From positions 238,328,001-238,392,000 of the forward strand of contig OZ024741.1 of assembly GCA_964016885.1 (NCBI GenBank): a stretch of 64,000 bases of DNA, read 5' to 3'. Position 1 is the stretch's first letter. Each line of letters opens with the position of its first letter. The position numbers and the translations under genes are program-made. Origin of the DNA: Eledone cirrhosa. Taxonomy: Eukaryota. Positions 24,226 through 57,954 of this stretch are shown here, piece after piece. The notes beneath the pieces were generated by a model that saw only the letters and a list, made by a program, of their open reading frames with translations, was not told the DNA's origin and did no database searches.

Positions 24226-26625
24226 CTGAGGAACTGGTGGAAGTCTTCTGGGTGTTGTTGAGAATTTCCATTCATTTTGTGTCTGTTCCATCTCTGAGTA
24301 ATAAGAACTTTTGGGATTTATTGACTGAAGATTTCTAGCAAATATATCGTCTGCATTTCTGGTTATTGCAACAGGATTGTTGGTGTGATACAGTATTTGT
24401 CTCATCTCAGTCGGAGATAGGAATTTTGGATTATCTGTTGTTGTGGGTGAGTTATTGGTGTGATTAATACATCTGAAAACACACAGTGTTATTGACACTA
24501 CAATAGCCACAGATATTATTACAGCTGCTGCTACAATGATAATTACCCAAGTCATATTGAGGTTGTTACCAGTCTGTAAGTGGACAGCAGTTAACATGGG
24601 AGATGTATCATTACTAACAAACAGTGTTAGTATGATAGCAGTTGTTGCTGATTGAACTGGAGTACCACCATCTTTTACTATAAACTGTAGGTCATATGTT
24701 CCTGCATCATTTTGGTAAACTGTCCGAGAGAAAGATAAGACACCAGTATGGGAGTTGACTGTAAACAGGTTTTTATCATTAGATCTCAGTATTCCATATG
24801 TGAGGAACGCATTGTTTCCAGTGTCTTTGTCAGAGGCTTTCAGAATTGTGATGTCTTTCTTACTGTGTGGATGGTAGTGGGCATCTAGATTGTAAGGGTC
24901 ATTAATAGGAAAGGTAAAATAGGGAGCATTATCATTTTTATCTAGAATCTCAATAAGAATTTTGGCAGTGTTATTCAGAGAAGGTGTTCCATTATCTTTG
25001 ACTAAAATCTGGAATTTATAGATGTCTTTCACTTCCCGATCTATTGATTGTGATGTAGAAATAAATCCATATTTTGTAAGTTGGAAAGGAATGTTATCAT
25101 TGTTGTTATCATTGATGATAGAATATGTAAGTTGACCTCCATCTCCAAGATCAGGGTCTGTAGCATTGATGAAGCCAATAGGGAAGTCAACTTTCTGGTT
25201 TTCATAGGTGAGAAATTGGAATGTATCTTTGGTAAAATGTGGCTGTACATCATTGACATCAGTTACTTTGACAGAGAATTGTTTCTTAGTTTTTAACTGA
25301 GGTGATCCCATGTCATGACATACAATAGATACAACATAGTGATCTATAGTTTCTCTATCAAGAGGTTCTTTCACCAATATTTTATATTCTTTAGAACCCA
25401 TATTAGAAAGTTGAAACATTTTATGATGAATATTACATTTAATTTGTCCATTAGGTCCACTATCTGTGTCAATGACCATAACATAAGCTATAAAACTTCC
25501 AATTTTACTTGCTTCTGAAATAACAGTAGAGGTCTCTGTTAAAGGAGATACAAAATCTACATTTATAATTGGAGCATTATTTTGGTTGTTAATTACATTA
25601 ATAATTAACATTGCCGTAGAACTTAAAGAAGGTTTTCCTCTATCCTTAGCTTGAATATATAATTTATAGTTTGGTTCCTTATTTTTGTAAAAATGTTCAT
25701 TTAAGAAGATTTCACCATTTGGTTTCAGTTTGAAATAAATTTTGACATATGAGCTTGTCTTTTGGTAAAATTTATATATGATGTCACCATTCTTTCCTGA
25801 ATCTAAATCTGTAGCTGATAAAACAAACACAGGAGAAGATTTGTGATGTGTATCACTGATGGTGATATTGTATGTTTGTTGAGAAAATGTAGGTCTGTTA
25901 TCATTAACATCTATAACAGATATTTGTATGTTTAAAATTGCTTCTTTTGGAGGTGAACCTCCATCTTTAGCCACTAACTGTAACATATAAGTGTCTTTTA
26001 GTTCTCTGTCTAACATTCCTTGTAGAGTAATTTTAAGTATATTCATTCCATCAGATTCTTTAAATATGGATAGTGAGAATTTTTTACTTTTATCTTTAAG
26101 TTTATATGTGATGTTTGAATTGAGAACACCAATGTCTTTATCAACAGCATTTGGTATTGATTTTGTTGATCCTTTTACATCTGTTTCATAAAATTCTAAT
26201 TTTATGTGATCTTCTGGAAATTCTGGCTGATGGTCATTAATATCTTCTATGAATATTTTAATTTTTAATATCTTTATAAATGTTTCTTCTCTCCTAACTG
26301 CCACTTTGACAATTTTAAAACATTCTTTTTTGAAAATACAAAGTGTTTCAGTATCCAGTGTCTGTGTAGTGTATATTTTTCCTGTATTGGTAACATTAAA
26401 TAAGTGAGAACCACTTGTCACTGTCCTTTGTAGTTGTGTAAATGTAATGAGAGTGTGTTGTTGATGTGCGAGAGAGTGTGTTAAGTTAACATCAACAGCA
26501 ATGTCTCCTATATATGTGTGAGGACTGTCTTCTTCATTGACATGGTAAGTGATGTCTGCACTTATGACACTGGATAGTAAAGCATACAACAGTAGACAGG
26601 CAAGTAAGCTACGTGTTTTCACCAT
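24226..26625 (-). CDS. PCDH: Protocadherin A, large coding exon (800 codons: signal peptide, EC1-EC6, TM, juxtamembrane)
   Basis: ORF 24172..26625 has cadherin motifs (DINDHQPEF, LDRE, AxDxG, DVNDNRP, DVNDVQP, DKNDNAP), the EC1 C-x5-C motif (CIFKKEC) and a TM helix WVIIIVAAAVIISVAIVVSITLCVF. Donor CAG|GTAAAG at 24226/24225 (phase 0). Acceptor TTTTAG| puts the exon start at 26663, 38 nt upstream of the ATG. Confidence 0.95.
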
Positions 26626-28029
26626 TGTTATGATTCTTCAAAAGTCCTGCACGCTGTCAGTATCTAAAAGAAGAATGGAAACTTTTAAAAATAGTGTTGT
26701 TATGTATAAATTACATTTGAATTATCTTTACTTAATACTGTTATACCTATTGACAATAGTTTTAGGATAAAATCAACATTTCATATGTATATAAAATCCA
26801 GTTGTCATTCTTCAAAAACAGAAGCAACTATTTTAAACATTTGTGTTATGAAGATATTAAATTAAAAAGAAACCAAGTAACATCTATTTGAATGTAGTAC
26901 TATTGATATTTTATATCCACTGTGTAATTCAGAGATAAAGTATTGTCAACATCATTGCAACCTGTTGCTTATATTGTTGTTGTTTTCTGAGATTTCACCA
27001 TCAATAACAACTACATCTTATACATTAAATGGAGGTAACATGTAATACATAATGAATTACATCTTTGGAAAATCATATAGATTGTAAAGTATGAACTGTC
27101 CTTTTAAATGGTATGAATGAATTGGCTATCACCACTCCCATAATTATATAATAATGGAGAGATTTTGTAATCTAATTGATATGAAGTTAAATGAAAACCT
27201 ACAAGCAAGACACTGACTGTAGATAATTTAGGATTCAAAATTAATTCAACATTTCATAAGAGTTATAAAGTGTTGTATGTAAATGAGAGAAGAAAATGTA
27301 TTCTTGATGAGACCATATAGTATGGATTATATAACAAGGGTACCAGTTTTACTTGGTTCTCATATATTCATTAAAAATCATTAAAAATAGATTTCTTTAA
27401 AATGTTCTGAATGGAAGTCATTTTTCCAAGCGTTATATTATAACAAAGAGATTCCAAAGTCTAATCGATATGAAGTCAAAGCATATTTCACATGTGGCAT
27501 GAACTGCACATATGCTAGGATTCAAAACCAAATTCGATGTATACTTTAAAAACATTTTATGTACATGTGTGTGAAGGTCTGCTTGAGTATATATATTATA
27601 TCGAGCTAGATAACTCAGTATCAAGTATTTTCATTTAAATATTTATTTGAATGTATTCATGCATTATGTATTATTTATTTATTTAACAAATAATTTAGAT
27701 TCAAAACTATCAAATTCCTTTGGGAATTCTGAAAGGTTTTATAATAAATTGTATTTTATTTTGAGAATAGATGCACCATATTCCTATTGGTCAGAAAAGG
27801 TGATTAAATGTGTTGGCATTAGGAAGGACATCCAGCCATAAAACAAAGCCTAAAAAAAACCCTTCCAACTAATGCTAGTATGGAAATGTAAATATAAAAG
27901 TGATGATGAATGATGATAGCTTCTAACATTTATTTTTAACTAATTAAAAAATGTTAGTTACAAATATAATTCATAACATTTCATAATGAACTATTCTATC
28001 AGATAATTGAGTATAACAAACTAGGTTGA

Positions 28030-28480
28030 TTATTAATAATAATGAAATTGTTGTTTACAGTGCTCAGGTGCACTACAACTCATCAAAGATGCATGTATAG
28101 TATAGAGAATAATATACAAATGTCAGGGAAGTGAATAGTGTATGAGTCATGATATACATGTGTACGTGTGTATGGAGGGGGAATATTAGGTGTAGTATTG
28201 CTGAATCTCAGGAAGCATGGAGGTTTTAATGGATGCAGTGTCTCGACAGCTAATAACTGATGCAGGTAGTTTGTTCCATGCTTCAGCAACTCTGAGCGTG
28301 AAAAAATGTTTCTGAAAGTCATGGGAGCTGTGCTGTTTTCTGACTTTGTTGGCATGCCAACATATGTTAAGACACATGGAAATCAAAAAGGTACTCAGGG
28401 TTGTTGTTGGCAAGATGGTTAATAATTTTGTGGGTGTTTACCAAGTCAGTTGCTAGAGCTTCATTGTATCCATGCCCAAT
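28030..28480 (-). mobile_element. CR1 3' fragment, same family as the 13.4 kb copy
   Basis: KHFFTLRVAEAWNKLP; near-identical 3'UTR. Confidence 0.85.
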
Positions 28481-29321
28481 CTTTGTTCTATCATCACCAT
28501 GGTCATCATCATCGTCTTCAACAGTATTCTTATCATCAATATCATTAAAGATATTATCACTTTAGTTCATATTTTAGAATGATCTATGTTCAAATTAGCA
28601 TCCATTTTCTACTCATTTAAAAGATCTTCATTTTGTTGACGACAAAAAAAAAAAAGAAATAGCTGTTGTTAAACCCATAGTCAGCCCTAGTAAGATAGAA
28701 CAATAAATAAAGGCATTCCAGCCATGGCCTTCCCATCGTATTTCAGGCATTGTGTACATAGGACTAGTTTATGAAATTATACCTTACTGTCTTTAAAAAA
28801 TGGACATGTTGGATAAAGATTTTGATATTATTTCTGGCAACTATGTGAAGGCTCCCTTCAATCCATAATTAAAAGTATATTTTGAAATCAAAAGAATTCT
28901 CTATAAATTTATTATTTCATGAATTGAATTTGGCTATAAATTACATTATAGCAATATATATATATATCATATTGATTTACTACTTTCTGATCAGTGTTTG
29001 TCTTCATAAGGGAAATTGATATGGAAATAATTCTTCCTTTTGGAAGTAGTTGCAATTCCATTATGGCTACTATTGTTGGAAATTGGAAATAATGGCTGTG
29101 TTCTAGCTCCAATACATATATATTTGGATGTATTTATGCATGTATGTGTGTGTGTGTGCGTGTGTGTATGCGTTTGTGTGTGTGTATGTGTGCATGCGTG
29201 TGTGTGTTAATGTGTTTGTGTGTTTGTGTTTATATACAAATAGCTATTTTAGCTGTTAATTTATTAGATTACTAGACACATTTTAATAAAAACTAGCAAT
29301 TGAGTGTAAAAAAAAACATAC

Positions 29322-29455
29322 CTGCATTTTAAAATCCTTCTCACATGTTAAACTGCGAGGGGGAGATAAATACTGATGTAGTGTTCTTCTTTGACTGCTG
29401 CTGTAGTAGTTCAGCAATAGCTGTGGGATGGGGAGGGAGTGGGAGGCAGAATCAC
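29322..29455 (-). promoter_or_regulatory. Non-coding first exon/promoter of protocadherin A
   Basis: Donor CAG|GTATGT; shared block GTAGTGTTC...ACTGCTGCTGTAGTAGT at 29378-29410; no clean TGAGTCA. Confidence 0.65.
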
Positions 29456-29944
29456 GACCATTCATGTGTAACTAATGGGGATGTGTGTGTGTTCATGTAT
29501 AGGTACAATATATTATATCTTGGTGTTACTAATGGTGTTGTGTGTATGTATAGGTACAATATATCATATCTTGATGATAAACTTTAATGCAAATGCTAAA
29601 GATGATATCAACTGTAATAGTTTGCATTCACCCACGATGTGTCTAAATCAAATGCATATGCATTTTCAATTCTATAGAATATTTTTTTTTATTTTTATGC
29701 TTTGATTTTTTAAAATTATTTGTTATTTTGAGTTTAGGCAATGTTTCTATTAAAAAAAAATGTTGCTTTGAATTTATGTCATCAATACCAAAACAAAATA
29801 TCCTAAAGCATATCAGGTTTTATGAATATCCTCTGAATATTATCTTAGGGTATTTCTCATATTATTGCTTGAATGCATGTTATCAAAGAAAAAATATGTA
29901 ATTATTTTTGAAATTATTTCTGTTAACAAAATATATTGATTATG

Positions 29945-30024
29945 TTATACAGGCTCTAGATAGGTTTCTTGTTCTTGTCCGCTCTTTGGTGTAGGGGGTA
30001 TGTTTGGTCGGTAGTTGCCATATT
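29945..30024 (-). CDS. PCDH: Protocadherin B, last coding exon (EYGNYRPNIPPTPKSGQEQETYLEPV*); spliced protein 872 aa
   Basis: TTCCAG|AA acceptor; TAA at 29945-29947. Confidence 0.88.
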
Positions 30025-30413
30025 CTGGAAAATATATAAAATCGTAAGATCACTCTACGAGATGAAGTTAGATTTCTTTCTGTGACAAATATTTGAAGGC
30101 AATTATTGTATACATTTGTGTATAAGTCCCCTTGGCTGATAAAGGGAAGTTCTATTTTAGATGCAATAATTACAATGTAACATGTTTTGAATCAAATTAT
30201 TTTAGGTCCAGTAGATATTTTCCATGCTTATTTTTTTCATGTCATATTTTTGTGTAAAAATATGACTTATACATGAATATATACAGTAGATACTTTTAAA
30301 AGTTCATTATTTTACAAATTAATAATAAAAAATGACTTTTACGATAAATGTGCTTCTTTAGAGAATATTTTGATTCTTTGCTGTTTGAATTTCCTCATTT
30401 ATTTCATTATTAC

Positions 30414-30570
30414 CTGATGCTCCCATTGTTTGATTTGTGATATCCCCCTCACTCCAACCACGGTTCCGTTCCTTGTTATAGGGTAGTGTGTCACTCAGAT
30501 TGTTTGATGCCACAATACTGTCACATCCTTTCTGTTCAGCAGAACTCACTGCCACATTCTTATTGTAATG
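30414..30570 (-). CDS. PCDH: Protocadherin B, cytoplasmic exon 2 (157 nt, HYNKNVAVSS...RNRGWSEGDITNQTMGAS)
   Basis: TTTCACAG|CAT acceptor and CAG|GTAATA donor; overlaps ORF 30358..30555. Confidence 0.88.
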
Positions 30571-31230
30571 CTGTGAAATATATATATGTTAGAAATACAA
30601 TTTGCTTCAAATATGTTTTATATTCAGTGTTTATTATATACTAGATTGTTAGCCATCATATGATGGATAATTTGAAAGTATTTGCTACTATGGGTAACAG
30701 TAAGTAAATAAATAAAGATGTACAAATATTTAAATTAAAAAATAAATATATGAAAAATAAATGCATTCCCTATGCCCACCTTTGGCCAAAACGGTACATA
30801 ATTTTGCTCAAACGCTACAAATATAGCATTAAGGAAGTGTCTATTTGAGAAAAAGGAGATATATTTTAATATATGTGCATTCCATTTGTCAAAAATAAAA
30901 ATGGAAGAGTGAAAGTAAATATTAGCTTCATACAAATGCTCAACTAACCACAATTATTTGTAGGTATATGTACATGTGCATATGTGTTCATAACTGTGTG
31001 CATAAGTGTGTCACTCACTGTAGCATTCGTTTACCTTTCTATTTTTCTCCTACCCAACTCTATGTATACTCCTTCTTCAACTCATGTTATCTCTCTCTCT
31101 CTCTCTCTCATATATATACATATATATATCTCCAGGGAGTGTAACTTGGAGTTACTGTAGGTTCACCCGGGTGAGCACTCGATGTTTAGGTTCACTTCTG
31201 TGTCGAGGTGTAGAGCTCTAGACAGTGTAT

Positions 31231-31493
31231 TATAGTAAAATAAAACAAGAATGAGTGGTTACTCTTTCATTATGTTTATTGGTTGGTGACACGTGTTTCA
31301 CCACTGATCAGCTCAAGGTTCGATCTGTATTGATCTAGCCCGACTCTGTAACCCATGGCTCGTCTGATGAGCCATGGATTACAGAGTCAGGCTAGATTGA
31401 TATAGATCAAACCTTGAGCCGCTCAGTGTCGAAATGCGCATCACCAACCAATAAACGTAATGAAGGAGTAACCACTCGTTTTATTTTACTATA
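31231..31493. repeat. ~260-bp imperfect palindrome containing hammerhead-like cores
   Basis: Arms are reverse complements around 31365; CTGATGA at 31364; GAAAT-GCGC-ATC at 31431-31442; GAAAC-ACGT-GTC on the minus strand at 31288-31299. Confidence 0.8.
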
Positions 31494-31504
31494 TATATAT
31501 ATAT

Positions 31505-31685
31505 AATTTTCAACTTTTGGCACAAGGCCAGCAATTATCCCAGTGTATTACTGGTACTTTATTTTATCGACCCCGTAAGGATGAAAGGCAAAGTTAACCT
31601 CGGCGGGATTTGAACTCAGTCCGTAAAGGGACATAACTATGCGTCAAAGCATGGCACCCGACCCTCTACCGATACTGCCAATCCA
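31505..31685 (-). mobile_element. tRNA-derived SINE, second family
   Basis: Matches 12913-13099. Confidence 0.85.
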
Positions 31686-32329
31686 CAATGTTATCAAACA
31701 TGACATGAAACCAATGCACTGTCATATCAGGAATTATATGTTAAAGATTATTCATACTAAATATTTGATATATATGAAGTATGCAAGGTATATCAGCACA
31801 GGCATGGATATGGGGTTAAGACGTTTGCTTCACAACCACACGGTTTCAGGTTCAATCCTAATGCATAGCACCTCGGGCAAGTGTCTTTTATAACTTCAGA
31901 CTGACCAATGCTTTTTGAAGTAAATTGACTGGCAGGGACAGTGCAGAAGCCAGTTGTGTATGTTCATATATATATATATATATCATCATCGTTTTAACGA
32001 AGTGGAGCCACTGATCTCCCATTATCTGTGTCTCGCTTTATATATGGTCAATGCTTCATTAAGTGCATAGGAGAGGTTGACATGTCTTTGACACAACCAA
32101 GGGTTCACCTGACTCTTTTGTTTGGGAAAATTTCTAAGGATGGATGCCCTTCCTATCACCAACCACTTTACAGCATCAGCATGTACTGGGTGTGTTTATC
32201 ATGTAGATCACCAACACTAGGGAGGCTGTCATGTCCTTGACACATCTGAAGAGTCCTCCCAACCCTTTGTCTGGCAAACCTTCTATGGCTGGATACCCTT
32301 CCTATCACCAACCACTCAACAGTGATATA

Positions 32330-32960
32330 GGACGAGTTCATAGCTCCTGCTATCTAGGTGACTTAATCAGCAGTAGAGGAAGGTATCTGAGAGCATAATA
32401 GCTAGAATAACAATAGGATGGAAGAAGTTTAGAGAGCTACTTCCATTGTTGACTGTATGATGCCTGTGTGTGAAGTGAAAAGTTGTATGGTAGTGAAACA
32501 TGGGCAGTGACTGCAGAAGACATGGATACACTGGAGAGAAATGAAGCAGCCATGCTTTGTTGGATGTGCAATGGAAATGTGAGAAAAAGGCAGAGCTTGG
32601 ATGAATTGAGGGGAAAAGCTGGGTTTAAAAGGAATCTGAGGTGGTGTGCTGGAGAGAAGACTGCGTTGGTATAGACATGCGATGCACATGGATTATGATC
32701 GATGGGTGAAGAAGTACCAGGAAATGTCAGTGGATGGAAGCCACAGTAATGGTAGACCCAGACAGACCTTGGCAGAGGTGGTGAGAACTGACTTCAAATC
32801 GCTGAGACTCACAGAGGGGATGAAGAAGAAATGCAGCAAGTGGAGAGATGCCATGCTGAAAAGGACATGTCCAACCCATGCAAGCATGGAAAAGTGGATG
32901 TAAAATCAATGATGATATATGTATGTATATAAAAACGGATGTTAAACGGTGATGGTGATG
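32330..32960 (+). mobile_element. RTE LINE 3' fragment
   Basis: YGSETWAVTAED...MLCWMCN and RRLRWYRHAMHM; duplicated GATGAT tail. Confidence 0.88.
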
Positions 32961-32962
32961 AT

Positions 32963-33012
32963 AAATATAAGTATGTATACGTACATACATATATGTATAC
33001 AGACGTACAGTA

Positions 33013-33073
<61 letters not shown>

Positions 33074-33431
33074 CTTATATTTAAGTAACAGCCATACTAA
33101 GAGTGAGAAATGAAATTTCGTTTCATTTTTTCCGTTTATCGTTTTCGGTACCCCGGCTGATTAACTCACTCGATATGCAAATTAGGCTGCTCAGCCGTTA
33201 ATATGCATAAGGAAAGTATATACTTTCAGACGTTCAACCATCTGGCAGGAAGGTTGCTGACGATAGCTAATAAGCTTGAAACTAGTACAGCGTTCCTTTG
33301 TCAGTGTTGAACAAATGAGCAACGATGGTTGCTAGACACTGTACGGCTTAATTCGGGATGTTTGTTTACAAACACACCGAGCATTATAATAAATGTTCGG
33401 TGAATCCATACGTACATATATATATGTGTGC

Positions 33432-33490
<59 letters not shown>

Positions 33491-33593
33491 CTACTGTACG
33501 TCTGTATACATATATGTATGTACGTATACATACTTATATTTAAGTAACAGCCGTACTAAGAGTGAGAAATGAAATTTCGTTTCATTTTTTCCG
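32963..33593 (+). mobile_element. Non-autonomous Penelope-like/retrozyme-like element
   Basis: 65-bp direct repeats at 33070-33134 and 33529-33593; inverted 5' segment; flanking GATGATAAATATA duplication; internal hammerhead. Confidence 0.65.
33248..33296 (+). ncRNA. Minimal type I hammerhead ribozyme motif
   Basis: GGAAGGTTG-CTGACGA-TAGCT aata AGCTT-GAAA-CTAG-TA-CAGCGTTCC: stem I with one mismatch, stem II AGCT/AGCT, palindromic stem III, GUA cleavage triplet. Confidence 0.65.
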
Positions 33594-36089: not shown

Positions 36090-38471
36090 CTGAGGAACTG
36101 GTGGTAATCTTCTGGGTGTTGTTGAGAATTTCCATTCATTGGTTAACTGTTCCATCTCTGGATAATATGAACTTTTAGGGTTTATTGACTGAAGATTTCT
36201 AGCAAATATATCGTCTGCATTTCTGGTTATTGCAACAGGATTGTTGGTATGATACAGTATTTGTCTCATCTCAGTCGGAGATAGGAATTTTGGATTATCT
36301 GTTGTTGTAGGTGAGTTATTGGTGTGATTAATACATCTGAAAACACACAGTGTTATTGACACTACAATAGCCACAGATATTATTACAGCTGCTGCTACAA
36401 TGATAATTATCCAAGTCATATTGAGATTGTTACCAGTCTGTAAGTGGACAGCAGTTAACATTGGAGATGTATCATTACTAACAAACAGTGTTAGTATGAT
36501 AGCAGTTGTTACTGATTGAACTGGAGTACCACCATCTTTCACTATAAACTGTAGGTCATATGTTCCTGCATCATTTTGGTAAACTGTCCGAGAGAAAGAT
36601 AAGACACCAGTATGAGAGTTGACTGTAAACAGGTTTTTATCATTAGATCTCAGTATTCCATATGTGAGGAAAGCATTGTTTCCAGTGTCTTTGTCAGAGG
36701 CTTTCAGAATTGTGATGTCTTTCTTACTGTGTGGATCATAGTGGACATCTAGATTGTAAGGGTCATTAATAGGAAAGGTAAAATAGGGAGCATTATCATT
36801 TTTATCTAGAATCTCAATAAGAATATTGGCAGTGTTATTCAGAGAAGGTGTTCCATTATCTTTGACTAAAATTTGGAAGTTATAGATGTCTTTCACTTCC
36901 CGATCTATTGATTGTGATGTAGAAATAAATCCATATTTTGTAAGTTGGAAAGGAATGTTATCATTGTTGTTATCATTGATGATAGAATATATAAGTAGAC
37001 CTCCATCTCCAAGATCAGGGTCTGTAGCATTGATGAAGCCAATAGGGAAGTCAACTTTCTGGTTTTCATAGGTGAGGAATTGGAATGTATCTTTGGTAAA
37101 ATGTGGCTGTACATCATTGACATCAGTTACTTTGACAGAGAATTGTTTCTTAGTCTTTAACTGAGGTGATCCCATGTCATGACATACAATAGATACAACA
37201 TAGTGGTCTATAATTTCTCTATCAAGAGGTTCTTTCACCAATATTTTATATTCCTTGGAATCCATATTAGAAAGTTGAAACTTTTTATGGTAAATATTAC
37301 ATTTAATTTGTCCATTAGGTCCACTATCAGTATCAATGACCATAACATAAGCTATAAAACTTCCAATTTTACTTGCTTCTGAAATAGCTGTAGAGGTCTC
37401 CGTTAAAGGTGCAACAAAATCTATATTTATAGTAGGGGCATTATTTTGATTGCTTATTACATTAATAATTAACATTGCTGTAGAACTTAATGAAGGAATA
37501 CCACCATCTCTGGCTTCAATATATAATTTATTTTGTTGCATATTTTTGTAAAAGTTCTCCTTTAGGAAAATCTCTCCATTTGACTTTAGTTTGAATCTTT
37601 TTCTCACATAAGAATTTGTTTTTTGGTAAAAGTTATAGGCAATATCTCCATTTTGACCAGAATCTTTGTCTGTAGCTGATAAAACAAATACAGGAGAAGA
37701 TAGGTGATGTGTATCACTGATGGTGATATTGTATGTTTGTTGAGAAAATTTTGGTTGATTATCATTGACATCTGTAACAGATATTTCTATGTTAAGAATT
37801 CCTTGTTTTGGTGGTGAACCTCCATCTTTAGCCACCAACTGTAACATATAAGTGTCCTTTTCTTCTCTGTCTAACACTCCTGCTAAGGCTATTTTAAGTA
37901 GATTTCTTCCATCAAATCCTTTAAACATAGACAGTGAGAATTTCTTACTTTTATCTTTGAGTTTATATGTGATGTTAGAATTGAAAACACCAATGTCTTT
38001 ATCAACAGCATTTGGTATTGACACTGTCGAACCTTTTCCATCTCTTTCACTAAACTCTATTTTTATTTGATCTTTTGGAAACTCTGGCTGGTGGTTATTA
38101 ATATCTTCTATAACTATTCTTATTTTCAATATCTTTAGAAATGTTTCTTCTTTCCTCACTGCTACTTTAACAATTCTGAAACATTCTTTCTTGTAAGTAC
38201 AAAGTGTTTCAGCATCCAGTGTTTGTGTAGTGTATAGTTTTCCTGTGTTGGTGACATTGAATAAATGAGAACCACTTGACACTGTCCTTTGTAGTTGTGT
38301 AAATGTAATGTGTTGTTGTGTAAGAGAGTGTGTTAAGTTAGAATCAACAGCAATGTCTCCTATATATGTGTGAGGACTGTCTTCTTCATTGACATGGTAA
38401 GTAATATCCATGGACACAACAGGTGACAGCATTGTATATACAAGACACAGTAGTGGGATATTCCTTGTCAT
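36090..38471 (-). CDS. PCDH: Protocadherin B, large coding exon (794 codons)
   Basis: ORF 36084..38471 has the same domain layout. Donor CAG|GTATAA. Acceptor TTTCAG| puts the exon start at 38508. Confidence 0.95.
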
Positions 38472-41278: not shown

Positions 41279-41313
<35 letters not shown>

Positions 41314-42786: not shown

Positions 42787-42866
42787 TTATACAGGTTCTA
42801 GATAGGTTTCTTGTTCTTGTCCACTCTTCACTGTTGGAGGTATGTTTGGTCGATAGTTGCCATATT
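42787..42866 (-). CDS. PCDH: Protocadherin C, last coding exon (EYGNYRPNIPPTVKSGQEQETYLEPV*); spliced protein 879 aa
   Basis: TTTTACAG|AA acceptor; TAA at 42787-42789. Confidence 0.88.
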
Positions 42867-43535: not shown

Positions 43536-43695
43536 CTGATGTTCCATATGTCTGATGTGTAATATCTCCTTCACTCCATCCACTGTTACGTTCTTTCTGA
43601 GAAGGTAAAGTATTATTCAAGTTGTTTGATGCCATAGTATTATCATTATAACATTTTTGTTCAGTTGAATTCTCTGACACATCTTTATTGTAATG
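43536..43695 (-). CDS. PCDH: Protocadherin C, cytoplasmic exon 2 (160 nt, HYNKDVSENS...RNSGWSEGDITHQTYGTS)
   Basis: CTGACAG|CAT acceptor and CAG|GTAATT donor; translated by hand with no stops. Confidence 0.88.
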
Positions 43696-46895: not shown

Positions 46896-49295
46896 CTGAG
46901 GAACTGGTGGTAATCTTCTCGGTGTTGTTGAGAATTTCCATTCATTGGTTAACTGTTCCATCTCTGGATAATATGGACTTTTAGGGCTTATTGACTGAAG
47001 ATTTCTAGCAAACATATCGTCTGCATTTCTGGTTATTGCAACAGGATTGTTGGTATGATACAGTATTTGTCTCATCTCAGTCGGAGATAGGAATTTTGGA
47101 TTATCTGTTGTTGTAGGTGAGTTATTGGTGTGATTAATACATCTGAAAACACACAGTGTTATTGACACTACAATAGCCACAGATATTATTACAGCTGCTG
47201 CTACAATGATAATTACCCAAGTCATATTGAGGTCGTTACCAGACTGTAAGTGGACAGCATTCAACATTGGAGATGTATCATTACTAACAAACAGTGTTAG
47301 TATGATAACAGTTGTTGCTGATTGAACTGGAGTGCCACCATCTTTCACTATAAACTGTAGGTCATATGTTCCTGCATCATTTTGGTAAACTGTCCGAGAG
47401 AAAGATAAGACACCAGTATGGGAGTTGACTGTAAACAGGTTTTTATCATTAGATCTCAGTATTCCATATGTGAGGAAAGCATTGTTTCCAGTGTCTTTGT
47501 CAGAGGCTTTCAGAATTGTGATGTCTTTCTTACTGTGTGGATCATAGTGGACATCTAGATTGTAAGGGTCATTAATAGGAAAGGTAAAATAGGGAGCATT
47601 ATCATTTTTATCTAGAATCTCAATAAGAATATTGGCAGTGTTATTCAGAGAAGGTGTTCCATTATCTTTGACTAAAATCTGGAATTTATAGATGTCTTTC
47701 ACTTCCCGATCTATTGATTGTGATGTAGAAATAAATCCATATTTTGTAAGTTGGAAAGGAATGTTATCATTGTTGTTATCATTGATGATAGAATATGTAA
47801 GTTGACCTCCATCTTCAAGATCAGGGTCTGTAGCATTGATGAAGCCAATAGGGAAGTCAACTTTCTGGTTTTCATAGGTGAGGAATTGGAATGTATCTTT
47901 GGTAAAATGTGGCTGTACATCATTAACATCAGTTACTTTGACAGAGAATTGTTTCTTAGTCTTTAACTGAGGTGATCCCATGTCATGACATACAATAGAT
48001 ACAACATAGTGATCTATAGTTTCTCTATCAAGAGGTTCTTTCACCAATATTTTATATTCTTTAGAACCCATATTAGAAAGTTGAAACATTTTATGGTGAA
48101 TATTACATTTAATTTGTCCATTAGGTCCACTATCAGTGTCAATGACCATAACATAAGCTATAAAACTCCCTATTACACTTGCTTCTGAAATAGCAGTAGA
48201 GGTTTCTGTTAAAGGAGACACAAAATCTATATTTATAGTAGGGGCATTATTTTGATTGCTAATTACATTAATATTTAATATTGCTGTGGAACTTAATGAA
48301 GGAATCCCCCCATCCCTGGCTTCAATGTATAATTGGTATTTACTTTCTATATTTCTGAAGAAGTTATCATTAATAAAAATTTCTCCAGTTTTGGAATTTA
48401 ATTTTAAATGTTTTCTAGCATATTTATTTGTATTTCTATGTAAATAGTAAGTAATATTTCCATTTTGACCAGAATCTAAATCTGTAGCTGATAAAACAAA
48501 CATGGGAGAAGATATGTGATGTGTATCACTGATGGTGATATTGTATATTTGTTGGGTAAAAGTAGGTCTGTTATCATTGACATCTATAACGGATATTTCT
48601 ATGTTTAGAATTCCTTCTTTTGGAGGTGAACCTCCATCTTTAGCCACCAACTCTAACATGTAAGTGTCTTTTAATTCTCTGTCTAACTTATTTTCAAGCA
48701 TTATTTCTAATATGTTTATTCCATCAGATTCTTTAAATATGGACAGTGAGAACTTTTTACTTTTATCTTTGAGTTTATATATGATGTTAGAATTGATAAC
48801 ACCAATGTCTTTATCAACAGCATTTGGTATTGATTTTGTTGATCCCTTTCCCTCCCTTTCACCAAACTGTATTTGTAATTGATTTCTTGGAAATTCTGGT
48901 TGGTGGTCGTTGATATCTTGTATAATTATTTCAATCTTTAATATCTTCAGAAATGTTTCTGACTTCCTCACAGCTACTTTAACAACTCTGGAACATTCCT
49001 TGTTATATGTACACAGTAACTCAGCATCCAGTGTCTGTGTAGTGTATAGTTTTCCTGTGTTGGTGATATTAAATAAGTGAGAACCACTTGACACTGTCCT
49101 TTGTAGTTGTGTAAATGTAATGAGAGTGTGTTGTTGATGTGTGAGAGAGTGTGTTAAGTTAGAATCAACAGCAATATCTCCTATATAGGTGTGAGGACTG
49201 TCTTCTTCATTGACATGGTAGGTAATATCTATGGACACAATGGAATACATCAATCCAAAGAGAAGGTAAAATTGTAAGGTGTTGATTATAATCAT
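46896..49295 (-). CDS. PCDH: Protocadherin C, large coding exon (800 codons)
   Basis: ORF 46842..49295. Donor CAG|GTATGT. Two candidate acceptors upstream of the ATG (exon start 49328 or 49334). Confidence 0.95.
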
Positions 49296-51211
49296 TGTTG
49301 TAATTCATTATTATTCATGAATATATATCTAAACCTATAAAGAAAGTAAAGCAAATTGATTTAATCACACAATCATTTGTAAATGTTTAAATTTATTCCT
49401 TCTTTAAACCTAGTATATCACATTTAAAACCTAAGCAATAATGCATTGGAGACTTCTCTAACATTCTCAAATAATGGGTTAATTCAATAAATCAAAAATT
49501 GTTAGATAAAATTTGGTGGGCTATCACCTTTGCTGACAACAAAGATTTTTTTGTCTGTGCCTAGGCCAGATTGTCCCATGTTTTTTGTATATATGTGTTT
49601 CTCTGTGGAGTGAGATGTAGGTCATGAATGTTGTTAAAGTGTATAAAAAAAATACTCTGCTTGTATGAATATGTGATGTCAGTTGTATAAAGAACAGCAG
49701 AGTTCTCAAAATGGATTGAACCTATTGAAGTGGGAGTCTACAGAAGAAATGTTTCAAAATGAAGACTGATCCGAAGATGTTGAAACAAACAAAGAAGTTG
49801 GCAAAGAACTGTGATTAATGGTATGGTGCTATGCCAGAATGAACCCATCCAACTCTTGCCAGCATGATAAAACACACAAGTATGATTGATGATAATAGTA
49901 ATAGTGATAAATATTGGGAAGCATAGTATTAACATTTAGCTTTTTTCCCAACTGTTATACTCATATTAAGTCTTATAGCACTCTTCCACTTTCTTCATTA
50001 GTGTCTCATCTATTTCTCACCCAATCTCCTATCAATGTATAAAATTATGAATGTTAAGGCAAAGGTGTATTGCTTACAGTGTTAAATTTAAATGTAATGC
50101 CATTTGTGTACTAAGGGATGGCATCACATTAGATCTACCTATATGTAATCCCAATTTGCCATCACCCCTTTTTATTGCTAGCCATCACTCTCTTTCTTCT
50201 CTCCCCGATCACTCACTATTGATTTCTATCAGTCCTATTATTAATTATTTTAGTATAGTCGAAATGTGATTATTTAATTTGAAAGATCAGTTTAAAATTT
50301 GGATGTTACATTACTGATGTATGCTAGAAATGAAACAAAATTCTTCAGTAAGCACCCCCTATAAAAGTATGAATGTTAAGACAAAGGTGTATTGCTTACA
50401 GTGTTAAATTTAAATTTAGCCATAGAATTTATGGAAAAGAACGACTGTGCATCCTCTAAGAAATTTGTTGAGAGCAGCATTAGCTCATGGAAAAAAGAAT
50501 GAAGCCCAACTGCAGAAAATTCCAAATGATAAGCAATCTATAAAGGGATGAGTTTTTGTAACAACATTGTATGTAAAATTACAAACAAATATATACAAGC
50601 TAAATCAAGATGGCGGGAATTACTTGGAGATGATGAAAAAGGTTTTGATGGTTTTTAAGTGATAAACTCATTTTGTGAAAAATGAATGTTTTTTAACCTA
50701 CCCTATGGATAATAATATATAACAGAGATTATCCTTACCTCTGGAAATTAATATATATTTATATTAGTGAAATTAATTAAAAAAATATGTACCTAAGGGT
50801 CAAAACCAACATTTAAAATCTGTTTAATGTGTAACTTAATGCTGAATGAAATTATATTATATTTATCTATGCAGATGATACAATATGTTTTGGTGAATGG
50901 ACAATATTTCCTGTTTAAACTGACATAGAAAAATATATTATGCTATGGAATATAACATTATATATCTAAATACAGTCAACTGAAATCAGTAATTGAATAA
51001 TGGTAGTTGTTAAAAATATCTTCCTTCTTAAACTGACTATATACACTACTGCAGTAACAATTGCCTATGGTAATGGCTAAATCTTTATAAGTATCTCTAT
51101 TTCTGACTCTATATGCATTATAATGAATGACACTTTAGCTATTATCTATTATCGTACTTCAATATCAAACATATAGTATCAAATATAAAATTGCAATGTA
51201 AAATGACTTAC

Positions 51212-51350
51212 CTACATTATTTAATCCTTTGTTTGTGTCTCTTACAGAAGACATTTATTCTGACGTAGTGTTCCAGTGTAACTGCTGCTGTAGTAGTGTG
51301 ACAATGGCAGTATCTTGATGATGTAGATTTGTGAGTCATAGTGGGAGCCA
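51212..51350 (-). promoter_or_regulatory. Non-coding first exon/promoter of protocadherin C
   Basis: Donor TAG|GTAAGT; GTAGTGTTCCAGTGTAACTGCTGCTGTAGTAGT; TGAGTCA at 51332-51338. Confidence 0.72.
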
Positions 51351-52132
51351 ACTACACACTAGAGGATTTCATTTATTTGTGCATATTGTATACATTAAGC
51401 TTAATTTATTTAAAACAATTACTAAAACATTTAATAAAGAATTTTGAAATTAGTAATTCAAATTTATTTTAAACTACAGAAAACTATATGTGACTAATAA
51501 ATTATCTTTTGTATATGTATACACATTGACACACGGAGCATATAAAACATTAACCTTAATGGCAATTTCATAACTCTAACCTTAATGGCAATTTCATACA
51601 AATTGCAATGAATTGCATTATGAAATATTCATTAAAATTATATTATTGTTTCTATTCCTTTTTTCTGTTCCTTCATTATTTATTCATAATTTAAAACTTT
51701 CAATTAGTATTTTTTGTATTTAAAATCGTATATTATTTGTAAATATTATATAGATAGTGGCAGGAACTGCATAATTTTAAAGTAAATGTTTTCCAATAGT
51801 TTTGTTCCTATATTTTCTAATCTATGATTGTATGAGGCTGAAATTCTATTTCTTGTGAGTATCAGTAATATACTGGGCAGAATTCAATATATTATAACCC
51901 TGGAAAATTTTGACCTGCTGTATGATCAAAATAAAACAATCATGGTTTTTGCAAATATTTTGAATTTCAGTTATCTAATTTGTTTACTCTTAAGTTTAGA
52001 TTTAATGGAAATATTTGCAAATGCATATTTATAAATATATAAATGTGGATTAATTATTTGTTGGTATGGAATTGCTGGTTAATTTAATTTTATTCTAAAT
52101 CAACCATAATGTTCTATTTCTATTACATTATT

Positions 52133-52345
52133 TATTCAAATCCCGCCGAGGTTAACTTTGCCTTTCATCCTTACGGGGTCGATAAAATAAAGTACCAGTA
52201 ATGTACTGGGTAATTGCTGGCCTTGTGCCAAAAGTAGAAACAATTATTTATTCAAATCCCGCTGAGGTTAACTTTGCCTTTCATCCTTACGGGGGTCGAT
52301 AAAATAAAGTACCAGTAATGCACTGGTTAATTGCTGGCCTTGTGC
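52133..52345 (+). mobile_element. Two tandem 5'-truncated SINE copies in the 3'UTR region of gene D
   Basis: TTCAAATCCCGC(C/T)GAGGTTAAC...GTAGAAACAATTA occurs twice head-to-tail. Confidence 0.85.
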
Positions 52346-52436
52346 CAAACGTAGAAACAATTATTTATGTTAAAATAAAGAAAAAATATAATAATCTTCA
52401 GGACAAATAATTGTGGTTGTGCTGGCTTTGAGTATA

Positions 52437-52525
52437 CTATTTTTTATACACAGGTTCTAGATATGTATCTTGTTCATGTTCACCTTTTGGTATTGGTGGT
52501 ATGTTTGGTGTGTAGTTGCCGTATT
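52437..52525 (-). CDS. PCDH: Protocadherin D, last coding exon (EYGNYTPNIPPIPKGEHEQDTYLEPVYKK*); spliced protein 878 aa
   Basis: CTTCCAG|AA acceptor; TAG at 52437-52439. Confidence 0.86.
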
Positions 52526-52802
52526 CTGGAAGATAAAGAAACATTATAAATAGTATGAATAATGGATAGTTTTCTCAAAAGAAAATGCCTGCTTCTGAAT
52601 TAATATTACATGGGTATTAAATTAGTTTTTATGAAACATTTAGCTGCTTATATTGAAACACACCTTTTAAATAGTTTACATGTGTATTTTATATAATCCC
52701 TTTTGTATAACAATTAAAAAGCTTCAACATAATGAATATAGAATTGTATCAGTTAGATTATAAGGAATTTATATTCACTGCTATTGATATTTGGCAAATT
52801 AC

Positions 52803-52950
52803 CTGATATCTTATGCGTGATATCACCTTCACTCCATCCATGGTTGCGATCTCTTTGAGATGGTAATGTATCATTTAGGTTGTTTGATGTCCCAATACTG
52901 CTATTATCCTCTTGCTCACGAGACCCATCTGAAATCTGTTTATCATAGAT
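52803..52950 (-). CDS. PCDH: Protocadherin D, cytoplasmic exon 2 (148 nt, IYDKQISDGS...RNHGWSEGDITHKIS)
   Basis: GACAG|ATC acceptor and CAG|GTAATT donor; in frame. Confidence 0.86.
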
Positions 52951-54694
52951 CTGTCATTGAAATAATAAGGATTTAGATACATATTTGAGAGGTTAACATA
53001 CACACTGTAATATTATTATTATAGGCATGCTAAAATAGTTGCTTTGGGTAACAGATTCTCCAAAACCATTAGGAAGTTTGGAATTATTTAATATGAGTAC
53101 TTTGATAGAAGTGAATTAAATATCTAAACTAATATAAGACTTGAATTCCAGTGATTTTGTTTTATAATGTTTGTCAAACTTGACCATGCATACCTATAAT
53201 AGTTATGGAGTCCAATGAATAATAAGGTTGGATTCACCTACACTAAGTGACTGCCTAGTTGAAGATCACACTGAGCACTATATAAAAGTGTAGCAAATTG
53301 ATATACACTAAATATTTGGATAACAAATTCTGATTTTGAATTAGTTGAATTTATGTTTTTCAGTAATTACAGCTTTGCAAAAAATGTATTTATGTATTTG
53401 CAGTTTTCACATTATGTTGAAATTGTTTCACACAGTTTTAAAATTAGAAATTCTGAAATGGTAGAATGTTTCGTTTTGATAGCATAATCAAATTGGTATT
53501 TGCACATAATGTGTGTATTATTGTCTACAAGTTAAAAATATCAAGATGGACATAAAAACCAAATAAGTTTCCAGAGGACATTAAAAATATGATTGTACAA
53601 CTTAGAGCCTAAAAGAATGTAAGGTCATACAATTATATATCATCGTCATAGTTTAACTTCTGTTTTCCTTACTAGCAAAGGTTGAGCATGTCATTACAGA
53701 TTGGTTAGTGCTTAAGCAGAAACTCTGGCCTCCAGGTGGGCCAACGGCCCAACATGTGACTGGAAAGTTGTCATATCTTTGACATAGCTGAAAGGTCTTT
53801 GTGACCCTTTGTTTGGCAGATTTTCAATGGCTGGATGTACTTCCTATATACTGGGTGTGTTTATCATGTAGAGGACCAACACTAAAGAGGTTGTCATGTC
53901 TCTATCCCAACTGAAGTGTCTTTGCAAGTTTTCTACAGTTGGAAAACCTTCCTACCCCAGTCACTTTACACCCACCCACACATAGTGAGGTTCATTTACT
54001 AGTCGACTATAATGATTATAATTGGTTGGTTAGCCACATGATCAAACGGAAAAAAACTCATTGTGAGGCATTACAGATGAGGTAAAATATAGGACAGCCA
54101 TTGTGTTATGTTACAAGATATTCAAATGAGTACACACCCTAGAACTGTGCAAGCAAGCTACTTTCACTGTATCCCTATTTCAGAAGAAAATGGTGGTTTC
54201 CTTCACAAATAAGGTAAACATATTTGGCATGAAAGCTACAGGAGGAACGATTATCTGTTAATAATGAAATACTTCAACATTTTCTGATGAAAGATGGCTG
54301 GTTAGAACTTTAAAAGAAGCATACTGATCCAAAGATGTTATTTTTGTTATGACCTGGGGAGGGGGGTATCATTTCTTAGACAGGTTAATAACATATAGAC
54401 TAAAGCATGATCATCTCTGAATATATTTGGCTTGATGAAATGGAACTTTGAGAAAAAGCTCCAATATTCAAACTATGCATGAGTTGTTTACATTTAACTC
54501 TAACATATAAATTTCATTTTCTCCAGAATATATTATATTTTTACACAATTCAACAATTTAGTGAATACTAACAGCTTTAAAGTTGAAACATTTCACAAAA
54601 CACTGGGTAACCTATTTTATTTGCAGGTAGATTATTGAGCTTCAGTTGCATCAATGAGATTTGGAATTCAAGAAAGTTTTAAATTGTTTTGTAT

Positions 54695-55065
54695 CTCATG
54701 AGCACCTTTGTGAATTCCATGTCTAACACCCGTGGATATATTTACAAAATTAGAAAACAGTACAGCTTCCAGGACTATCGGAAACATTTTTTCATGCTCA
54801 GAGTTGATGAAGCATGAAACAAACTGCTTGCATCAGTTGTTAGCTATTGGGACACTGCATCCTTCAAAACTTCTATGCTTCCTGAAATTCGCCAACATTA
54901 CACTTGATATCCCCTCTCCACACACACACATGCATGTGTGTGTGTATGTCATAAATCATACACTGTTCACTTTCCTGGCATTTGTACATTATTTTATGTA
55001 CTATACATGTACTTTTGATGAGTTGTAGTGTACCTGAGCACTGTACACAATCATTTTCATTATAT
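54695..55065 (+). mobile_element. CR1 3' fragment
   Basis: Matches the 13.6-14.0 kb sequence, including TTGTAGTG(T/C)ACCTGAGCACTGTACAC. Confidence 0.82.
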
Positions 55066-55554
55066 TATATGCTTTGGGGGATGGTTAAAGAATTTACTTC
55101 ACAACCATAAGGTCTGAAGTTCGATCCTGTGTGGTATTTTGAACAAATGCATTTTACCATAGTTTTAGGCTGACCCAAGACTTTTAAGTAAAATTGGGTT
55201 GATGGAAACTTCAGGTGGACAGCATTTGTAATGCAAAATGTCAGCATTGTCATACATAAGGACACAGTGACTCTACCTGAGGAATACATCTGTGGAATAA
55301 ACTTAACTACTTGCACAATAATGAGTAAGCAGCTTAGGTGAATAAACAGTTGAAATACTTTTGTCAAAGCTTAATATCTAATTATAGTTATAAGAAATAA
55401 AAGTGTGAGAACTGTGAGCATCCTATGAGATAAAATATCATACTTTAGTAGATTTTAATAAAGTTTAATAAATAACATAAATTGAAATAAATACATACAC
55501 ATAAACGAAGAAAGAAAAACAATACATTTGAAAAACGAAATCTTGTATAGGTAC

Positions 55555-57954
55555 CTGGGGAACAGGTGGCAGCCTCCTGGGTGTTGTTGAGAATTTCCAT
55601 TCATTGGTTAACTCTTCCATCTCTGGATAATATGAACTTTTAGGGTTTATTGACTGAAGATTTCTAGCAAATATATCGTCTGCATTTCTGGTTATTGCAA
55701 CAGGATTGTTGGTGTGATACAGTATTTGTCTCATCTCAGTCGGAGATAGGAATTTTGGATTATCTGCTGTTGTAGGTGAGTTATTGGTGTGATTAATACA
55801 TCTGAAAACACACAGTGTTATTGACACTACAATAGCCACAGATATTATTACAGCTGCTGCTACAATGATAATTACCCAAGTCATATTGAGATTGTTACCA
55901 GTCTGTAAGTGGACAGCATTCAACATTGGAGATGTATCATTACTAACAAACAGTGTTAGTATGATAGCAGTTGTTGCTGATTGAACTGGTGTACCACCAT
56001 CTTTCACTATAAACTGTAGGTCATATGTTCCTGCATCATTTTGGTAAACTGCCCGAGAGAAAGATAAGACACCAGTATGGGAGTTGACTGTAAACAGGTT
56101 TTTATCATTAGATCTCAGTATTCCATATGTGAGGAAAGCATTGTTTCCAGTGTCTTTGTCAGAGGCTTTCAGAATTGTGATGTCTTTCTTACTGTGTGGA
56201 TCATAGTGGACATCTAGATTGTAAGGGTCATTAATAGGAAAGGTAAAATAGGGAGCATTATCATTTTTATCTAGAATCTCAATAACAATATTGGCAGTGT
56301 TATTCAGAGAAGGTGTTCCATTATCTTTGACTAAAATCTGGAATTTATAGATGTCTTTCACTTCCCGATCTATTGATTGTGATGTAGAAATAAATCCATA
56401 TTTTGTAAGTTGGAAAGGAATGTTATCATTGTTGTTATCATTGATGATAGAATATGTAAGTTGACCTCCATCTTCAAGATCAGGGTCTGTAGCATTGATG
56501 AAGCCAATAGGGAAGTCAACTTTCTGGTTTTCATAGGTGAGGAATTGGAATGTATCTTTGGTAAAATGTGGTTGTACATCATTAACATCAGTTACTTTGA
56601 CAGAAAATTGTTTCTTAGTCTTTAACTGAGGTGATCCCATGTCATGACATACAATAGATACAACATAGTGATCAATAGTTTCCCTATCAAGAGGTTCTTT
56701 CACCAATATTTTATATTCTTTAGAACCCATATTAGAAAGTTGAAACATTTTATGGTGAATATTACATTTAATTTGTCCATTAGGTCCACTATCAGTGTCA
56801 ATGACCATAACATAAGCTATAAAACTCCCAATTTTACTTGCTTCTGAAATAGCAGTAGAGGTCTCTGTTAAAGGTGATAAAAAATCTATATTTATATTTG
56901 GAGCATTATTTTGATTGTTAATTACATTAATTATTAACATTGTTGTAGAACTTAATGAAGGAATGCCACTATCCTTAGCTTCAATACACAATTGGTATTT
57001 ATTCTCTATATTTTTAAAGAAATCTTCATTAGCGAAAATTTCTCCACTTTTAGGATTTATGTTGAAATATTTTCTAGCATGTTTATTTGTATTTCTGTGT
57101 AAATAGTAAGTAATATTTCTATTCTGACCAGAATCTAAATCTGTAGCTGATAAAACAATTACAGGAGAAGATATATGGTGTGTGTCACTGATAGTAACAT
57201 TATATGACTTTTTATTAAATATTGGTGGGTTATCATTGGTATCTCTAACAGATATTTCTATGCTTAGAATACCTTCTTTTGGTGGCGAACCTCCATCTTT
57301 AGCTACCAACTGTAGCATATAAGTGTCTTTTAATTCTCTGTCTAACATTTCATTTAAAGTTATTTTAAGTAGTTTTATTCCACCAAATCTTTTAGACATG
57401 GATAATAAAAATTTCTTACTTTTATCTTTGAGTTTATATGTGACATTTGAATTGAGAACACCAATGTCTTTATCAACAGCATTTGGTACAGATTTTGTTG
57501 AGCCTTTTACATCTGTTTCATCATATTGTATTTTTAAATGATTTCTTGGAAATTCTGGTGCTTGGTCATTAATATCTTTTATTAATATTTTAATTTTCAA
57601 TATCTTTATAAATGTTTCTGATATTCTTATTGCGACTTTAACAACTCTGGAACATTCCTTGTTATATGTACACAGTAACTCAGCATCCAGTGTCTGTGTA
57701 GTGTATAGTTTTCCTGTGTTGGTGACATTGAATAAGTGAGAACCACTTGACACTGTCCTTTGTAGTTGTGTAAATGTAATGAGAGTGTGTTGTTGATGTG
57801 TAAGAGAGTGTGTTAAGTTAGAATCAACAGCAATGTCTCCTATATAGGTGTGAGGACTGTCTTCTTCATTGACATGATATGTAATGTCTATGGATACAAC
57901 AGAATATATCAATCCATAGAGAAGGTAAAATTGTAAGGTGTTGATTATAATCAT
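55555..57954 (-). CDS. PCDH: Protocadherin D, large coding exon (800 codons)
   Basis: ORF 55465..57954. Donor CAG|GTACCT at the homologous position. Acceptor TTTTCAG| at 58172, displaced by a SINE in the 5'UTR. Confidence 0.93.

Follow-up and report, generated by a model that had tools for sequence, protein, structure and literature searches.

Domain-restricted homogenisation in protocadherin arrays of the octopod Eledone cirrhosa, and its probable origin in gene conversion

A 64,000-nt stretch of the Eledone cirrhosa genome (assembly GCA_964016885.1, contig OZ024741.1, positions 238,328,001 to 238,392,000), hereafter the window, carries four protocadherin genes, A to D, which are nearly identical over about 1.3 kb of coding sequence and clearly diverged elsewhere. 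The question raised by this locus is what keeps one part of neighbouring genes alike while other parts differ. A reading of the sequence alone (the sequence-only reading) had proposed that ongoing gene conversion holds the membrane-proximal part constant while the recognition domains diversify, converging on the barcode design of vertebrate clustered protocadherins. The comparisons presented here indicate that non-allelic gene conversion at the DNA level, restricted to certain domains, very probably causes the shared core. The explanation as a whole, in which conversion overwrites a common scaffold and selection likely acts against the erasure of predicted specificity surfaces, is probable.

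Silent-site profile of the array

The four genes are minus-strand cadherin open reading frames (ORFs) of 795-829 codons, located where the sequence-only reading had placed them. Their products have a signal peptide, six extracellular cadherin repeats (EC1 to EC6) of which EC1 is of the protocadherin type, one transmembrane (TM) helix and a cytoplasmic tail, and thus have the features of protocadherins. Pfam matches are five Cadherin domains plus Cadherin_2, and the single-chain model of gene A presents six beta-sandwiches and a TM helix (predicted local distance difference test score, pLDDT, of 74). The top PDB matches are protocadherins, with Xenopus Pcdh8.1 and human PCDH10 as best sequence and fold matches; the closest proteins are octopod protocadherins, the top one being from Octopus vulgaris (83% identity). 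GT donors close the large exons of A, B, C and D at 24226, 36090, 46896 and 55555, each gene has its own two coding exons downstream, and a contig of run X1 links the large exon of gene A (24226) to the start of its exon 2.

Within 864 kb tiled around the window, 49 large exons of full length, 48 of them with the frame intact, were found in 0.55 Mb, together with two broken copies. The genes are in tandem on the same strand, with a median spacing of 9.7 kb and a single large exon for ectodomain and TM helix; exons 2 and 3 were located for 47 of the 49. The array is composed of a beta sub-array of 27 genes (g01-g27), a singleton (g28) and an alpha sub-array of 21 genes (g29-g49), to which the window genes A-D belong as g29-g32. 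The labels alpha and beta were coined for this analysis and are unrelated to those of published papers. The frameshifted g38 and two broken copies were excluded from the analyses.

The 1.3-kb stretches of A-D present 96.7-97.8% identity in all six pairs. As had been noticed, the identity includes silent sites: synonymous divergence (dS) among the four genes is low in EC5 (0.015), EC6 (0.042), EC4 (0.168) and the front of EC1 (0.175), and higher in EC2 (0.37), EC3 (0.75), the back of EC1 (0.73) and the signal peptide (1.4). Both the conserved front of EC1 and the diverged signal peptide and EC2-EC3 are hence as described from sequence alone, and the uniform dS which that reading had named as evidence against itself did not appear, given the range of 0.015 to 1.4 along the exon. 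Between alpha and beta, dS is 1.45 in EC2, 1.49 in EC3, 0.45 in EC4, 0.30 in the tail and 0.13 in the front of EC1, while the values for EC5 (0.041) and EC6 (0.062) are the same as within sub-arrays. When the two sub-arrays are compared, EC5-EC6 presents one fixed difference and 30 polymorphisms in common, and the proportion of synonymous differences (pS) between them does not exceed 0.11 in any 30-codon window of residues 451-735.

Homogenisation is thus nested: EC5-EC6-TM and the front of EC1 are homogenised array-wide; EC4, the tail and exons 2-3 only sub-array-wide; the signal peptide and the back of EC1 through EC3 are spared. Silent and fourfold sites present a 5- to 36-fold spread among domains. 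The core had been delimited as EC4 to TM, which is accurate for EC5-EC6-TM, but the core common to the whole array begins only in the last part of EC4, and EC4 itself is shared only within a sub-array. Likewise, the abrupt stop reported at the splice donor is real for the intron, whose first 30 nt are at the background identity of 0.57, yet the taper begins inside the exon, where identity falls from 0.99 to 0.93 and 0.88 over the final 120 nt. Exon 2 is diverged among A-D as claimed (69-86% identity; 80-90% for exon 3), but not in the beta sub-array, where exons 2 and 3 of 26 genes are approximately 99% and 98% identical. Copies of the short second intron of beta genes are 68-92% identical and identity tapers into the flanks (24 genes), so RNA-templated homogenisation, which would affect exons only, is not needed. 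The shadow ORFs also recur, all five off-frame stretches of at least 50 codons in the core of gene A being found in C and D and three of five in B; as this follows from nucleotide identity, it is no separate evidence.

Whole-exon distances conceal this structure. Their median within arrays is 0.06-0.08 (Jukes-Cantor, JC), an average over 0.12-0.19 in EC2-3 and 0.02 in the core, and the closest pair in the array has 9 differences over the whole exon.

The singleton g28 (G000:C2:238325383-238327749) lies just before the window, between the sub-arrays, and has one-to-one Octopus orthologs. Its front of EC1 and EC5 are partly converted and the rest is unconverted; its exons 2-3 were not found with the motifs used.

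Exchange among copies, arrays and species

Among 47 EC5-6 cores, none of the 1081 pairs is identical, with a median of 13 differences in 633 nt. The core variants are mosaic: 290 of 595 informative site pairs are incompatible under the four-gamete test, and linkage between variants is absent past 10 nt. CpG-type sites account for 2 of 31, and the ratio of nonsynonymous to synonymous divergence (dN/dS) of core variants is 0.14-0.36. In the reads of run X2, possibly the source sample, core unitigs of 189-195 nt have a depth of 271-333 against approximately 9 for two pieces that occur only in gene A (~30-37x), values that are a rough guide and not a copy number. Four other organisms present the same core contrast, their core pieces being ~1-4% off gene A.

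Exchange is also seen directly in EC2-3. Gene A and g33 have ~210 nt in common with 1 difference, gene B and g34 have ~300 nt with 2 differences, and both tracts have one end at the hypervariable segment of EC2 and the other short of the middle of EC3. A GENECONV-like runs test yielded significant tracts in 2/6 window pairs, 19/190 alpha pairs and 54/351 beta pairs (limited to residues 96-352 for the two sub-arrays), and is given less weight than the direct tracts because conserved linkers can mimic tracts. GC content at fourfold sites is 0.22-0.26 in homogenised tracts and 0.14-0.23 in EC2-4. An origin in another array was considered for the unusual EC2-3 of g01, g25/g27 and g28 and rejected: no donor was found, and identity to all other groups is ~42-53%.

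Three further arrays (22, 23 and 18 genes) present EC5-6 dS of 0.03-0.06 and EC2-3 dS of 0.28-0.63. Two of them, gamma and delta, were sampled over 200 kb each, and 4 microsatellite ORFs were dropped from gamma. Each has its own homogenised core, and silent sites between arrays are near saturation (pS 0.34-0.77). Core distance is unrelated to gene spacing in all five gene sets, and EC2-3 distance rises with spacing in four of the five. Twenty dispersed genes have a pS of 0.67-0.81 in every domain, including 0.67-0.69 in EC5-EC6. Thirteen gene pairs, some up to 1.9 Mb apart, have one domain of low pS, which in none of the 13 is EC2 or EC3. Four such dispersed genes (L144-L147, G000:C2:251.3-253.2 Mb) have a pS of 0.04-0.14 in EC5 with saturated EC2-3, a pattern whose predicted source is conversion across megabases.

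Individual arrays present further peculiarities. In L121-L140 (G000:C2:239.99-240.19 Mb), two interleaved EC2-3 types (7 and 16 genes; pS ~0.6) share one scaffold (pS ~0.04). Its EC4 differs from that of L081-L100 by a pS of only 0.21-0.24, with 0.3-0.7 in other domains, which suggests an old exchange between the two arrays. L141, a lone gene between two arrays, has a front of EC1 like that of the window array (pS 0.21-0.23) and an EC6 like that of the next array (0.17).

Annotated proteins from Argonauta hians and from three species of Octopus were cut into gene units and compared at the protein level; trees were built from 123 of 165 units, 42 incomplete or mis-annotated ones being dropped. 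Alpha and beta are both present in Argonauta hians and Octopus, and the g28 type in Octopus, so the sub-arrays predate the Argonauta-Octopus split. Foreign units sort by sub-array in EC2-3, EC4 and tail and by lineage in EC5-6. On the EC2-3 tree the sub-array label must change once and the lineage 13 times, on the EC5-TM tree 11 times and twice, respectively. On a 40-row subsample, approximately unbiased (AU) tests reject a single alpha clade for EC5-TM (p = 1e-5) and one clade per species for EC2-3 (p = 9e-52 and 2e-40). Clade support in the EC5-TM tree is modest for the E. cirrhosa clade (77-78) and 99-100 for Argonauta. The EC5-6 distance between Argonauta alpha and beta (0.025) equals the within value, compared with 0.109 between Argonauta alpha and E. 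cirrhosa alpha. Residue I704 is found in 47/47 E. cirrhosa genes and 0/72 foreign genes, and Argonauta has 17 such lineage residues. The EC2-3 of g01 has as its partner an Argonauta gene (distance 0.30, compared with at least 0.48 to any own paralog), while its core is of the own-species type, 0.008 from the nearest paralog.

Many public Octopus gene models of this array (P0124, P0128, P0155, P0166 and similar) are fused or end before EC5, as would be expected if the common core breaks assembly or annotation.

Four things together lead to conversion: the opposite trees of EC2-3 and EC5-TM, the dS profile, the mosaicism of the core variants and the fact that four arrays repeat the pattern. The claim that it holds the membrane-proximal part constant is strongly supported by the profile, the trees, the tracts and the other arrays. 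In the proposed mechanism, short-tract conversion would keep overwriting the EC5-EC6-TM and front-of-EC1 scaffold across old sub-arrays, producing a virtual constant region without shared exons. It would likely be selected against where predicted binding-specificity surfaces would be erased, and short EC2-3 tracts would reshuffle the putative specificity tags into new combinations.

Predicted recognition surfaces and competing explanations

The spared block spans EC1 strand F to the start of EC4. Variability within it peaks at EC2 strand A in each of the five gene sets (amino-acid heterozygosity 0.53-0.62). In the vertebrate trans dimer, EC1 presents its C-F-G face to the A-B-E-D face of EC4 and EC2 its A-B-E-D face to the C-F-G face of EC3, and strand A of EC2 lies on the EC2:EC3 trans face (PMC7082078); EC2/EC3 confer specificity in vertebrate protocadherins (PMC5001838). 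With faces assigned from the single-chain model and the published definitions (PMC7082078), and with g01, g25 and g27 excluded from this test and from the segment test, variability is higher at exposed residues of the trans faces than at those of the other faces (0.30 vs. 0.17; 34 vs. 27 positions; p = 0.02). The sequence pattern is only suggestive of homophilic EC1-EC4 trans binding set by EC2-EC3, as in vertebrates. It is rather likely that the proteins bind homophilically through an antiparallel EC1-EC4 contact, with the EC2 A-B segment and EC3 as predicted gene-specific tags whose homogenisation is selected against.

Several results weigh against this explanation or parts of it. The face test is significant in only three of five sets (p = 0.19 for alpha, the window sub-array, and 0.44 for delta), leans on EC2 strand A and uses non-independent positions, and the variable positions of EC3 fall mostly outside the face expected, in loops and on strand D. 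As dN/dS is below 1 throughout, even in the hypervariable segment (0.29-0.56), positive selection on EC2-3 is unsupported; the claim that EC2-EC3 diversify is therefore kept insofar as they are old and divergent, but they mostly escape conversion, with short exchanges. EC5-EC6 are the most constrained domains among dispersed genes (proportion of nonsynonymous differences, pN, 0.16-0.17), and such constraint by itself favours conversion there. Derived variants present no consistent GC frequency bias in the five gene sets. In Octopus, EC5-6 differs by 0.046 between sub-arrays and 0.011-0.018 within, so exchange across sub-arrays is weaker there. Finally, residues L557, V562 and R597 (gamma-B2 numbering), needed for vertebrate EC6 cis pairing (PMC5106212), align to D591, K596 and S631 of gene A, positions counted by hand on the alignment, the first lying one residue beyond its printed part.

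It is unlikely, although not without support, that conversion is real and EC2-EC3 simply tolerate change, having drifted past the homology threshold to form a self-sustaining island with no selection on tags. The low dN/dS, the constraint of EC5-EC6, the face test failing in two of five sets and the fact that pS follows pN along EC2-3 in four of five sets, also predicted by a homology barrier, all agree with such an escape. However, the front of EC1 is as variable as EC2-3 among dispersed genes (pN 0.29) and is homogenised, while the back of EC1 is more constrained (pN 0.21) and is spared (in four of five sets), so constraint alone is insufficient; moreover, four arrays that differ in their cores all have the same island, and the recent EC2 tracts halt at the hypervariable segment. 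Repeated unequal crossing-over within the conserved core, yielding chimeric genes and homogenisation, would fit the near-identical neighbours (the pair with 9 differences), the growth of EC2-3 distance with spacing and L141, which takes EC1 from one array and EC6 from the other. As the cause of the pattern it is improbable, given a front of EC1 homogenised between two divergent flanks, linkage decay within 10 nt, tracts of 200-300 nt inside otherwise divergent pairs and genes as far as 1.9 Mb from one another that have only EC5 in common; crossing-over likely has a share in determining gene number.

A scenario in which whole genes were duplicated recently and EC2-EC3 then changed rapidly by adaptation would account for the small whole-exon distances, from which PMC9795677 dates a burst at 8-14 Ma, and some own-species EC2-3 clades are indeed recent. 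It is nevertheless very improbable: the divergence of silent and fourfold sites varies 5- to 36-fold from domain to domain, intron identity does not rise above background, and the sub-arrays and even single EC2-3 lineages occur also in Argonauta, the trans-species EC2-3 clades contradicting it. No more credence is due to intrinsically constrained or slow-mutating silent sites in EC5-EC6 (RNA structure or a regulatory element): other organisms' core pieces are only ~1-4% off gene A, but the same sites are near saturation between arrays and among dispersed genes, and lineages fix their own core residues. Assembly collapse or polishing, which the sequence-only reading had also named as evidence against itself, is the least credible source of the likeness. 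Such repeats do break assemblies, and many public Octopus bimaculoides models are fused or end before EC5; yet every core is distinct, core variants are mosaic and have a dN/dS of 0.14-0.36, the core is multi-copy in read-derived unitigs, and four other organisms and the annotated Argonauta and Octopus proteins show the same contrast. Domain-restricted conversion remains the preferred explanation.

Relation to known protocadherin systems

Conversion restricted to domains is known in vertebrate clustered protocadherins, with highest dS in EC2/EC3 and lowest in EC5/EC6 (Noonan 2004 as cited in PMC4978886); in mouse Pcdh-alpha, dS is also low in EC1 (0.31) and EC5 (0.27), compared with 2.1 (PMC4978886). 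The E. cirrhosa arrays share this ranking and the single large exon for ectodomain and TM helix. In contrast, the octopod genes were duplicated whole: each has its own tail exons 2-3, without the variable exons spliced to shared constant exons of vertebrate alpha/gamma clusters, and conversion also covers the TM helix, the tail and, in one sub-array, exons 2-3. Domains contrast more strongly in the octopod, by a factor of 12-14 inside sub-arrays and of 36 from one sub-array to the other; the Xenopus and mouse rows available, computed with a different estimator, give 2.0-7.9. Given that cephalopod and vertebrate expansions are independent (PMC9068888, PMC4978886, PMC9712504), the sequences point to a process already known from vertebrates that operates again in a separate expansion of differently designed genes. 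The proposed convergence on the vertebrate barcode agrees with the silent sites, at which EC2-3 are the most and EC5-6 the least diverged, but not with EC6, whose cis-dimer residues are not conserved, unlike in vertebrate clustered protocadherins; convergence on the full design is unsupported, and any convergence may stop before the vertebrate zipper mechanism. The non-clustered delta-protocadherins (PMC7082078), which include the best matches, form antiparallel EC1-4 dimers without the clustered cis dimer. Unlike the E. cirrhosa genes, they are dispersed single genes with no tandem array, and no such homogenisation is described for them in the available parts of that paper.

In coleoids, tight same-strand arrays of related multi-exon genes like these have been reported (PMC9068888, PMC6339937, PMC9795677), and conversion has been suggested from whole-gene trees (PMC9068888, PMC6339937). 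Beyond what the available parts of those reports describe, homogenisation is here domain-restricted and nested, and whole-gene distances understate the age of EC2-3. The burst of PMC9795677 was dated from whole-gene distances, and the term gene conversion does not occur in its available text. As whole-exon distances mix old EC2-3 with a young core, published whole-gene dates are likely biased. More tentatively, octopods may have independently built a protocadherin barcode, with several arrays that each have a virtual constant region and old, protected, at times reshuffled EC2-EC3 cassettes, the published 'recent burst' being partly a conversion artefact. No per-domain protocadherin analysis for cephalopods was found in the literature searched, PMC10084454, PMC7811963, PMC6472339 and PMC12682272 being without one in their available parts; the search did not cover key papers and most supplements, which may already describe part of these results.

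Octopus neurons express ~21 protocadherins each (PMC9712504), and cephalopod protocadherins are putative neuronal identity tags. The present results add a sign from sequence that the domains which escape homogenisation are the ones that escape it in vertebrates; the sign recurs in several species and across four arrays. EC2-3, and residues 138-156 in particular, are candidates for binding swaps on a naturally constant scaffold. Short-read assembly and the assignment of single-cell reads in the common core and tail exons are likely biased, as is whole-gene dating.

The features of the window are presented in Table 1.

Table 1. Protocadherin features of the window (window coordinates).
Feature	Position	Strand	Description
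Gene A (g29) large exon, coding part	24226..26625	-	signal peptide, EC1-EC6, TM, proximal tail; 800 codons; GT donor at 24225
Gene A array-wide homogenised core	24466..25263	-	~residues 455-720: end of EC4, EC5, EC6, stalk, TM
Gene A EC4, homogenised only within sub-array	25240..25569	-	dS 0.17, 0.14 within vs. 0.45 between sub-arrays; 30 fixed differences
Gene A EC2-EC3, old, gene-specific, short exchanged tracts	25570..26220	-	dS 0.41-0.50 within, 1.47 between sub-arrays
Gene A hypervariable segment, residues 138-156	26158..26214	-	EC2 strand A, A-B loop, strand B; strands from model
Gene A back of EC1 (strands F-G), spared	26221..26355	-	dS 0.41-0.58 in 4/5 gene sets, 0.07 in fifth
Gene A front of EC1 (strands A-E), second array-wide tract	26356..26559	-	dS 0.13 between sub-arrays, 0 fixed differences
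Gene A second coding exon	23217..23376	-	X1 contig joins 24226 to its start
Gene A third coding exon	21135..21214	-	
Gene B (g30) large exon, coding part	36090..38471	-	
Gene B second coding exon	30414..30570	-	
Gene B third coding exon	29945..30024	-	
Gene C (g31) large exon, coding part	46896..49295	-	
Gene C second coding exon	43536..43695	-	
Gene C third coding exon	42787..42866	-	
Gene D (g32) large exon, coding part	55555..57954	-	
Gene D second coding exon	52803..52950	-	
Gene D third coding exon	52437..52525	-	
Next gene (g33), second and third exons	62720..62867, ~61732..61809	-	large exon just past window end

The large exon appears to be internal: in 38 of 48 genes an acceptor-like site precedes the ATG by at most 90 nt, and a 1027-nt X1 contig aligns only as far as window position 26665. 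The acceptor-like sites and the contig end point to untranslated upstream exons and distant promoters beyond an upstream intron. Broken copies are located at G000:C2:238155057-238156852, 238445229-238447618 and 238582777-238585307, one with an internal deletion and two with frameshifts; the third is followed by an assembly gap of 200 N at 238591985. Positions 1-21000 of the window are without a protocadherin ORF and, like the introns, contain dispersed repeats of 100-450 nt and AT microsatellites. A 1.1-kb segment is common to 50949-52063 and 60477-61618, with 72% identity.

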